DNA of 64,000 nt, taken from the NCBI RefSeq assembly GCF_988242995.1, contig NZ_OZ547043.1. One strand, 5' to 3'. Shown in pieces: positions 7,034-7,321 of the stretch. Position 1 is the stretch's first letter. Each line of letters opens with the position of its first letter. The translations under genes and the position numbers were made by a program. A model generated the notes under the pieces. It made no database searches. It was not told where the DNA came from and worked only from the letters and a program-made list of their open reading frames with translations.

Positions 7034-7321
7034 CTGTCTGGTGTTATTGAAAATATTTTCAGATATATATTACCTGAGAGAAAGTTTTACCCCTCACCTG
7101 TCAATTCACTCACTGGAAATTTAATTATGAAATTACCTGTAAAGTTATTAATGAGCCTTATATCTCTGGTCAGCGTTATTGCACGTGCCGGGGAATATAA
7201 AAATTACAGCCGGGATGAAATAAAATACTGGCGATATACATCATACAAGTGGGGGAAACTTCCGGAAGGTTTCACTGATGAGAAATTTTCCAGCGCCATT
7301 TACAACGGAAGAATATTTACA

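Follow-up and report, generated by a model that had tools for sequence, protein, structure and literature searches.

Prophage-like islands of the CP4-44, CP4-57, and CP4-6 type decay in Escherichia coli, and deletions within them give rise to chimeric open reading frames and gene remnants. Tandem signal peptides have been engineered in E. coli, reportedly in prolipoprotein/OmpA constructs that Coleman, Inukai, and Inouye described in Cell in 1985. In Neisseria, Haemophilus, and Campylobacter, contingency loci undergo phase variation by slipped-strand mispairing. Members of the Ivy family (inhibitor of vertebrate lysozyme; PF08816), among them E. coli Ivy (YkfE) and Pseudomonas aeruginosa PA3902, are recognized by a disulfide-bonded loop, CKPHDC, with an essential histidine (PMC4262234, PMC3660660). 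This loop is described as strictly conserved in 30 family members and as essential for inhibition (PMC4262234, PMC3660660).

The locus studied here has points in common with each of these systems. It lies within the 64,000-nt stretch of DNA that we analyzed (the window), in a CP4-44-type island with dynamin-family, RdcB-family, and patatin genes, the fused open reading frame (ORF) that is our subject, a gene for a 136-aa protein, and DUF932, antirestriction, yeeS, yeeT, and cbeA genes. The gene context, the mosaic presence or absence of cassettes, the insertions of IS elements, and the decayed neighbors are shared with other decaying E. coli islands. In contrast to what is usual there, the scar at this locus preserves the frame and links one complete export leader to another, and its spread has reached about 42% of complete E. 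coli genomes, where it is annotated as an ordinary protein rather than as a pseudogene. Overall, we hold it to be very likely that the upstream part of this frame is a remnant at a deletion scar, fused in frame to an Ivy-like gene whose functional product is most likely a 162-aa preprotein that begins at position 7322. Judged from the alignments, the fusion appears to be an ordinary in-frame deletion scar that is common in E. coli.

Two export leaders in one frame

The frame from 7019 to 7615 runs without an intervening stop, and within it the ATG at 7127 is followed, after 65 codons, by an in-frame ATG at 7322. A preliminary description of the locus had pointed to a signal-peptide-like frame that opens at 7127 and reaches 7322 without a stop, and this is confirmed by the ORF listing and by hydropathy: the Kyte-Doolittle maxima of the fused frame fall at residues 3 to 21 and 69 to 85. 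A product that begins at 7127 has the leader MKLPVKLLMSLISLVSVIARA followed by GEYKNYSRDEIKYWRYTSYKWGKLPEGFTDEKFSSAIYNGRIFT (GEYK...GRIFT), which is contiguous with the Ivy-like start. A product that begins at 7322 has a second leader, MKRLHTLMLFLAVLFTGFNFNAEA, followed by ATVKQ. Both leaders have a Lys/Arg n-region and an A-x-A c-region.

To each we applied the SPase I rule, namely, a basic n-region, a hydrophobic core of 10 to 15 residues, and small residues at -3 and -1. The first leader (7127 to 7189, + strand) is predicted to be of the Sec type on this rule and on homology. Its parts are MK..K / LLMSLISLVSVI / A-R-A; the n-region contains lysines, the hydrophobic core spans 12 residues, and hydropathy peaks at 2.57. 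This leader is homologous to MKFIVKALIYLAVMLSFTANA, the leader of a 180-aa protein that is discussed below. The second leader (7322 to 7393, + strand) reads MKR / LHTLMLFLAVLFTGF / A-E-A. Its start codon is the start point of relatives of 160 to 161 aa that have no upstream extension, and it is N-terminal in the 160-aa relatives; in the fused frame, it would have that position only with translation from 7322. As in the engineered tandem leaders, two leaders stand in one frame and the point of interest is whether the internal leader is recognized and cleaved. The engineered leaders were adjacent and designed, whereas a stretch of 44 residues from a truncated domain lies between those of the present frame, and the long form is known from sequence alone. 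Our literature search on tandem signal peptides found nothing directly relevant, and a search for papers citing the RefSeq accessions found none.

The frame also contains a potential start farther upstream, a GTG at 7019. The patatin gene (5921 to 6991) is closed by an intrinsic-terminator-like hairpin and T run (7011 to 7032, + strand), with a 7-pair stem that includes 5 G-C pairs, followed by TTTTT. The GTG lies inside the stem (7011 to 7027), and its pairing with the anti-Shine-Dalgarno sequence is only -0.9 kcal/mol. Given its position in the terminator stem and the lack of a Shine-Dalgarno match, this start was rejected; the earlier judgment that a start within the upstream terminator is unlikely was therefore sound.

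Origin of the 65 upstream codons

The open frame upstream of 7322 is not a product of chance: it represents the 5' portion of a real gene. Residues 1 to 63 of its product align without gaps with a 180-aa protein encoded at L006:2098-2640, with 30 of 63 positions identical (48%; pairwise E 9e-17); the N-terminus of the 180-aa protein is MKFIVKALIYLAVMLSFTANAAEYKEYPQGEITYYKYLPRNGWTLPAGYTVEQFSSAIYKGQI. The 65 codons (7127 to 7321, + strand) are thus identified, by homology and synteny, as the front portion of a MKLPVKLLMSLIS-type gene of a family of 180-aa secreted proteins. This family is without a name, and its known entries are P0039, P0040, and L006:2098-2640. Its members are about 180 aa long, with a beta-rich middle and a C-terminal helix that ends in ..CRRYGNC. 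The alignment ends at the junction and covers residues 1 to 63 only, and the window therefore holds a fragment of a family member, not a member. A model of the 180-aa protein, of low confidence (pLDDT 66), has the five main beta-strands at residues 72 to 139, beyond the part that is retained. As to the function of the donor family, there was no match in Pfam and, with the weak model (pLDDT 66), no fold match in the PDB.

Gene order points in the same direction. Four genomes with the 160-aa Ivy-like form (L006 to L009) have the order patatin, 180-aa gene, about 360 nt, Ivy-like gene, and DUF932. The 180-aa gene in these genomes comes directly after the patatin gene, which is the position of the remnant in the window. 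The spacer of about 360 nt in L006 is a decayed 130-aa gene, of which L010 has an intact copy immediately upstream of its Ivy-like gene. Compared with L006, the window is about 0.7 kb short, and the deficit is larger against an ancestor whose 130-aa gene was intact.

The junction itself can be located closely. DNA homology to the 180-aa gene extends to about 7315, and the last 7 to 15 nt before the ATG at 7322 match the native 5' leader of the Ivy-like gene. The sequences before this ATG are GGAAGAATATTTACA-ATG in the window, GGAGAATTTACA-ATG in L010, and GAAGGAATTTATA-ATG in L006. Because the parent sequences are alike at the break (GG..AAT), the junction can be placed only within 7304 to 7316 (+ strand), with homology to the 180-aa gene on its left and to the native Ivy-like 5' leader on its right, and the break point has an uncertainty of about 6 nt. 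Its sequence is identical in eight of the eight fused copies compared. This common junction implies that the in-frame state arose once and was passed on, rather than being reached several times. For any one junction, the prior chance of an in-frame state is 1 in 3.

The alignments indicate one deletion of about 0.7 to 0.9 kb between the two short similar sequences (GG..AAT). It took the approximately 117 remaining codons of the 180-aa gene, the whole 130-aa gene, and the spacers, and it ended about 8 to 13 nt upstream of the Ivy-like ATG. The junction kept the frame by chance, such that the remnant reads into a complete Ivy-like preprotein, including its own leader. As far as sequence can speak to origin, the data show 7127 to 7321 to be a gene remnant left by a deletion. 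We infer the donor allele, which was not observed directly: no full-length protein more than 49% identical to the remnant is present in a collection of 5.8 billion proteins, and all sequences there with the start M[K/Q]LPVKLLMSLIS are either fusions or truncated fusions.

The preliminary description offered two accounts, one of which is also the simplest for the raw sequence: two adjacent small genes for secreted proteins would have been joined when the stop codon between them was lost by a point mutation or a small indel. The merger of two secreted-protein genes stands, but its cause was a deletion rather than the loss of a stop. The upstream partner was not a gene of 65 codons, as its full-length homologues are 180 aa long; homology stops at residue 63, exactly at the start of the Ivy-like 5' leader; and stop loss does not account for the 0.7 kb that is absent relative to L006. 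Loss of a stop codon was rejected on the junction alignment, and we give it almost no credence. Among the orthologous loci compared, we found no single longer protein with one leader, the arrangement that the preliminary description had named as the opposing case.

Start codon, selection, and the G tract

The two candidate ATGs have similar, weak pairing with the anti-Shine-Dalgarno sequence (-3.3 kcal/mol at 7127 and -3.5 kcal/mol at 7322, where the mean for ATG triplets in the window is -2.5), and both start regions are unstructured, that at 7127 being A/U-rich. Therefore, sequence alone does not say which ATG is used. The corresponding values are -8.8 kcal/mol for the start of the intact 180-aa gene in L006, -8.7 kcal/mol for that of the 136-aa gene, and -5.7 and -6.4 kcal/mol for the unfused Ivy-like starts in L006 and L010, respectively. 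Compared with the two unfused starts, the Ivy-like gene's own Shine-Dalgarno site is weakened by the deletion. A search of the + strand upstream of 7127 found no sigma-70-like site, with counts no higher than in shuffled sequence, and a search of 6800 to 8500 for structured or known RNA families gave no Rfam match at E ≤ 1.

General membrane-topology rules suggest that the functional product most likely still starts at 7322. An Ivy fold with a disulfide loop must reach the periplasm, and we infer the start at 7322 on this basis. The product would be a 162-aa preprotein, exported by its own leader and cleaved after AEA. A start at 7127, if used, would give a 227-aa chain with an internal second hydrophobic segment, which in that position would not be expected to serve as a normal leader, and such a chain would probably disturb the export of the Ivy-like domain.

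Substitutions differ in kind between the two parts of the frame. The eight copies of the remnant that we compared have 0 synonymous and up to 9 nonsynonymous differences per pair, at about 9 distinct variable sites (K2Q, A19V, E23K, S28I, and several in or next to the G tract at 7249 to 7255). With 41 synonymous and 154 nonsynonymous sites (of 195), the probability that all 9 changes are nonsynonymous is, by our own arithmetic, about 0.12 under neutrality and about 1e-5 at a dN/dS of 0.1. At these approximately 9 sites, on which the test rests, the substitutions fit neutrality and not purifying selection at a dN/dS of 0.1. The Ivy-like ORF, for which the same loci show as many as 75 synonymous differences, is under purifying selection, with dN/dS between 0.06 and 0.24 in all pairs except the near-identical L011-L013 (0.29, from 1+1 differences). 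Across 13 variants of the 227-aa form, too few to discriminate between its parts, the frequency of variable amino acid sites is 0.092 per site in the remnant, 0 in the second leader, and 0.094 in the mature part. The second leader keeps its x-E-A cleavage motif (AEA or VEA) through indels in the c-region, which reads FNFNAEA, FNVEA, or FNAEA. In FDAARGOS_1261, an IS3 element replaces the ATG of the remnant, and the Ivy-like ORF is intact. A 182-aa protein, P0007, was considered as a natural N-terminal truncation and set aside as uninformative, its ends being cut by contig ends.

These observations bear on whether a 227-aa protein with two leaders is real and selected, with translation starting at 7127 and export by the first leader, and with the 44-residue stretch and the second hydrophobic segment acting as a propeptide or a membrane tether for the Ivy-like domain. 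We regard the combination as rather improbable. Purifying selection on the 65 residues would be expected of it and was not seen, and these residues are a piece of a larger domain rather than a unit. The survival of the x-E-A site through indels is what would be expected if the second leader were still N-terminal; relatives without the extension exist, and in the genome with the IS3 element the counterpart of the start codon at 7127 was lost and the Ivy-like ORF stayed intact. By the positive-inside rule, the Lys-Arg that precedes the second segment would face the periplasm, which is unfavorable for an anchor, and an anchored form would leave the disulfide-loop domain in the cytoplasm. What speaks for a 227-aa product is that about 95% of the 2,284 records retain the frame, including those whose G tract is broken up by G→T changes (of the window type or the O104:H4 type), that PGAP calls a 227-aa coding sequence, that the Shine-Dalgarno site at 7322 is weak in fused copies, and that the start region at 7127 is unstructured and A/U-rich. 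The unusual tandem architecture that was the other suggestion of the preliminary description finds no support as a selected design, given the missing purifying selection, a frame that depends on the G tract, and relatives that start at MKRL.

The G tract (7249 to 7255, + strand), which is GTGGGGG in the window, has the form GGGGGGG in most genomes, and its length sets the frame between the remnant and the Ivy-like ATG. We took a census of the frame with variant-specific queries of 65 to 68 nt against complete genomes, which gave 2,284 records holding about 2,337 copies. The frame is kept in 2,172 (about 95%), made up of G7-AAACTT (1,268 records), G8-AATTT (790), GGGGTGG (95), the window type GTGGGGG (17), and G9-ATTT (2). 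It is lost in 70 (about 3%), made up of G8-AAACTT (42), G6 (26), and G9-AAACTT (2), and part of these records may be homopolymer sequencing errors. The remaining 42 have an unclassified tract, with the frame unassigned. The 95% in-frame share could reflect selection for the fusion, but it is equally expected from recent common descent, as a single recent origin would leave most copies in frame and the block from 7027 to 7326 is the least diverged of the region (0 to 4 differences per 100 nt versus 5 to 35 in flanking genes). A scan of metagenomes for tract variants yielded 5 loci only, all with 7-nt tracts. In L015, a contig of low coverage, the remnant carries a separate frameshift that may be erroneous.

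Shifted forms of the remnant, 65 to 67 aa long, occur in the protein collection because of the length of the G run at 7249 to 7255. They diverge after ..RYTSYKGG into NFRKVSLMRNFPAPFTTEEYLQ, followed by a stop. These forms are in the -1 frame and end at the TGA of an ATGA at 7322 to 7325 that overlaps the Ivy-like ATG. PGAP labels the shifted copies "frameshifted" pseudogenes, and their Ivy-like ORF is untouched.

A homopolymeric tract and between-strain differences in its length are both features of contingency loci, and we considered whether the tract is a phase-variation switch, in which G7 would give a fused, poorly exported product and G6 or G9 a separate ORF of 65 to 67 aa with ATGA-coupled translation of the Ivy-like gene. 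If true, this would place a periplasmic inhibitor of lysozyme or lytic transglycosylase on a mobile island under heritable on/off control. Tract lengths of 6, 7, 8, 9, and 12 are found in public sequences, and in other alleles A→G changes have brought the run up to G8 or G9 with the frame unchanged. The shifted frame is open as far as the ATGA overlap, but 23 shifted codons would stay open by chance with a probability of about 0.33 (our own arithmetic), and the G8 frame ends some 10 codons on and would give no coupling. Off-frame tracts are limited to about 3% of complete genomes, some of these within G7 lineages (e.g., one O157:H7 genome), in a manner that resembles a sequencing error or a very recent slip. 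G→T changes have broken the run in two lineages. A run of seven is short for efficient switching in E. coli, which also counts against a switch. The likeness to homopolymeric-tract contingency loci thus extends to a G run of 7 to 9 in a reading frame and to strain-to-strain length differences that change the frame. It ends where the tract lies in a remnant rather than in a functional gene, where the run is interrupted in several lineages, and where so few genomes are off frame; the variation here is known from between-strain comparison. We consider a switch highly improbable.

The Ivy-like gene and its annotation

The intact 162-aa product falls below the thresholds of the Ivy family models. 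It scores 14.9 bits against PF08816 (cutoff, 21; E, 0.03) and 16.7 against the NCBIfam equivalog NF007443 (cutoff, 180), far below the latter. When 1.84 billion representative proteins were searched with a profile, remote homologues emerged that, together with close relatives, gave an aligned family of 25 (6 close relatives and 19 remote homologues); 19 of the 25 match PF08816 at E ≤ 0.001, the best at 7.6e-12. The AlphaFold (AF2) model has a pLDDT of 88.7, and its eight best Foldseek matches in the PDB are all Ivy (4ps6, 1uuz, 1xs0, and 1gpq), at a probability of 1.00, with TM-scores on the target of 0.64 to 0.74 and root mean square deviations of 2.6 to 4.0 Å. A six-residue Cys-x4-Cys loop is at the position equivalent to that of Ivy, and both cysteines are invariant in the family alignment. 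The loop has a conserved lysine and reads CKAHTC in the window and CKANTC, CKANAC, or CKSNAC in other alleles. Relative to CKPHDC, proline and aspartate are replaced, and histidine alternates with asparagine among alleles, with asparagine in many.

The model and the profile links to PF08816 therefore justify the label "Ivy-like" that the downstream gene had been given, through predicted fold and transitive homology; the scores and the loop motif do not establish strict membership. The predicted periplasmic export leader, the fold, and the Cys-x4-Cys loop at the equivalent place are shared with the Ivy family. In contrast to that family, the gene is below the Pfam and NCBIfam cutoffs, has CKAHTC in place of CKPHDC, and belongs to a mobile island cassette in which it is mostly preceded by the in-frame remnant. 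We view it as an island-borne branch of Ivy, found in pathogenic E. coli (O157:H7, O104:H4, and ST95), with alternation of histidine and asparagine in the loop. Based on sequence relationships and the structure model, its product is a candidate inhibitor of lysozyme or lytic transglycosylase.

The window's own copy is interrupted. Compared with E. coli S88, there is one difference in 841 nt, a G→A at 7615 that turns TGG into TGA (7613 to 7615, + strand), five codons before the cysteine loop. This nonsense codon is private to the window: none of 5,426 complete genomes carries it, and all relatives have TGG. The ORF in the window thus comprises 97 codons and the premature TGA (7322 to 7615, + strand). 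The remainder of the frame (7616 to 7810, + strand) is intact in sequence, with the loop CKAHTC at 7631 to 7648 and the natural stop, TAA, at 7808 to 7810. The end of the frame at the TGA, ahead of the natural stop, had gone unmentioned in the preliminary description. As the TGA precedes the loop codons, the product would be without the loop and the beta-sheet core, unless the change is a base-call error or UGA is read through at a low level.

The main value of the finding is for annotation. Of 5,426 complete E. coli genomes, about 2,280 (about 42%) have the remnant, nearly always at ≥95% identity, and just 26 have the 180-aa gene intact. In PGAP annotation, the fused form is a hypothetical protein of 227 aa (or 225 aa) that starts at the equivalent of 7127. 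The 227-aa "hypothetical protein" of about two-fifths of complete E. coli genomes is chimeric, combining a gene remnant with a divergent Ivy-family protein, and the start assigned to it probably lies 65 codons upstream of the true one. Where the G tract is shifted, the copies are probably mislabeled as pseudogenes, as their Ivy-like ORF is intact.

Protein searches returned Ivy-like relatives of two kinds, those of 223 to 227 aa with the extension and those of 160 to 161 aa that start MKRL; P0014, of the shorter kind, is present on 864 contigs. The remnant junction now precedes three Ivy-like alleles that are up to 22% apart in protein sequence. The gene for a 136-aa secreted protein (7826 to 8236, + strand), of unassigned family and with a strong Shine-Dalgarno site, begins 15 nt after the Ivy-like stop. 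In most loci the two genes travel together as a two-gene cassette, and there are also islands without this cassette and others with only a fragment of it.

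Divergence and lesions of the 65-codon remnant

The least diverged part of the region is the block at 7027-7326, which comprises the intergenic stretch and the remnant (7127-7321, plus strand), the 5' end of a 180-aa secreted-protein gene that is fused in frame to the Ivy-like gene. Differences amount to 0 to 4 per 100 nt in this block, compared to 5 to 35 in the flanking genes, and no synonymous changes occur in it among the copies compared. This pattern suggests that the block had a single recent origin and was then spread by recombination. The block may also be under constraint at the nucleotide level (e.g., as a promoter).

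Within the remnant, variation affects a G tract (7249-7255 in the window) that is polymorphic among genomes in both length (6, 7, 8, 9, or 12) and sequence (GTGGGGG and GGGGTGG). In other alleles, A-to-G changes lengthen the tract to G8 or G9, with the frame kept. At the related locus L003 (NZ_CP069441.1), the remnant has lost its ATG, now TAC, to an IS3-family element (1252-2522) whose insertion point coincides exactly with this start codon; PGAP starts the coding sequence at this locus from a Met within the remnant.

Gene neighborhoods of the Ivy-like cassette

The Ivy-like gene is accompanied in most loci by the gene for a 136-aa protein, which in the window (7826-8236) begins 15 nt past the Ivy-like stop, encodes a leader, has no family assignment, and is preceded by a strong Shine-Dalgarno site (-8.7 kcal/mol). 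At locus L006, the Ivy-like gene is kept and the 136-aa gene is missing; here a 130-aa secreted-protein gene is present in decayed form (2640-2985), with the 180-aa gene on one side and the Ivy-like gene on the other. The 130-aa gene is intact (1484-1876) on the Logan contig L010, where, together with a YfjT-family gene (1000-1461; PF27224 in the precomputed list), it takes the place of the patatin gene upstream of the Ivy-like/136-aa pair. This difference in upstream genes shows that the cassette is mobile from one island context to another.

Allelic variation and naming of the Ivy-like protein

In the window, the Ivy-like reading frame is cut short by an in-frame TGA (7613-7615) five codons upstream of the Cys-loop, at a position occupied by TGG (Trp) in all relatives. 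This codon is the sole difference from Escherichia coli S88 over 841 nt, and its equivalent was found in none of the 5,426 complete genomes searched. The essential-His position of the Ivy loop (7631-7648) is occupied by His or Asn, depending on the allele (the window, L002, L006, L010, and L019), and by Asp in one further variant, the related protein P0005. Across alleles, the loop takes the forms CKAHTC, CKANTC, CKANAC, CKSNAC, and CKSDAC.

UniRef gives the 160-aa Ivy-like proteins (P0014 cluster) the name "DNA polymerase III subunit gamma/tau", evidently a propagated misnomer. One PGAP pseudogene call, on a fragment of such a protein at L005 (2647-2769), carries the same name.
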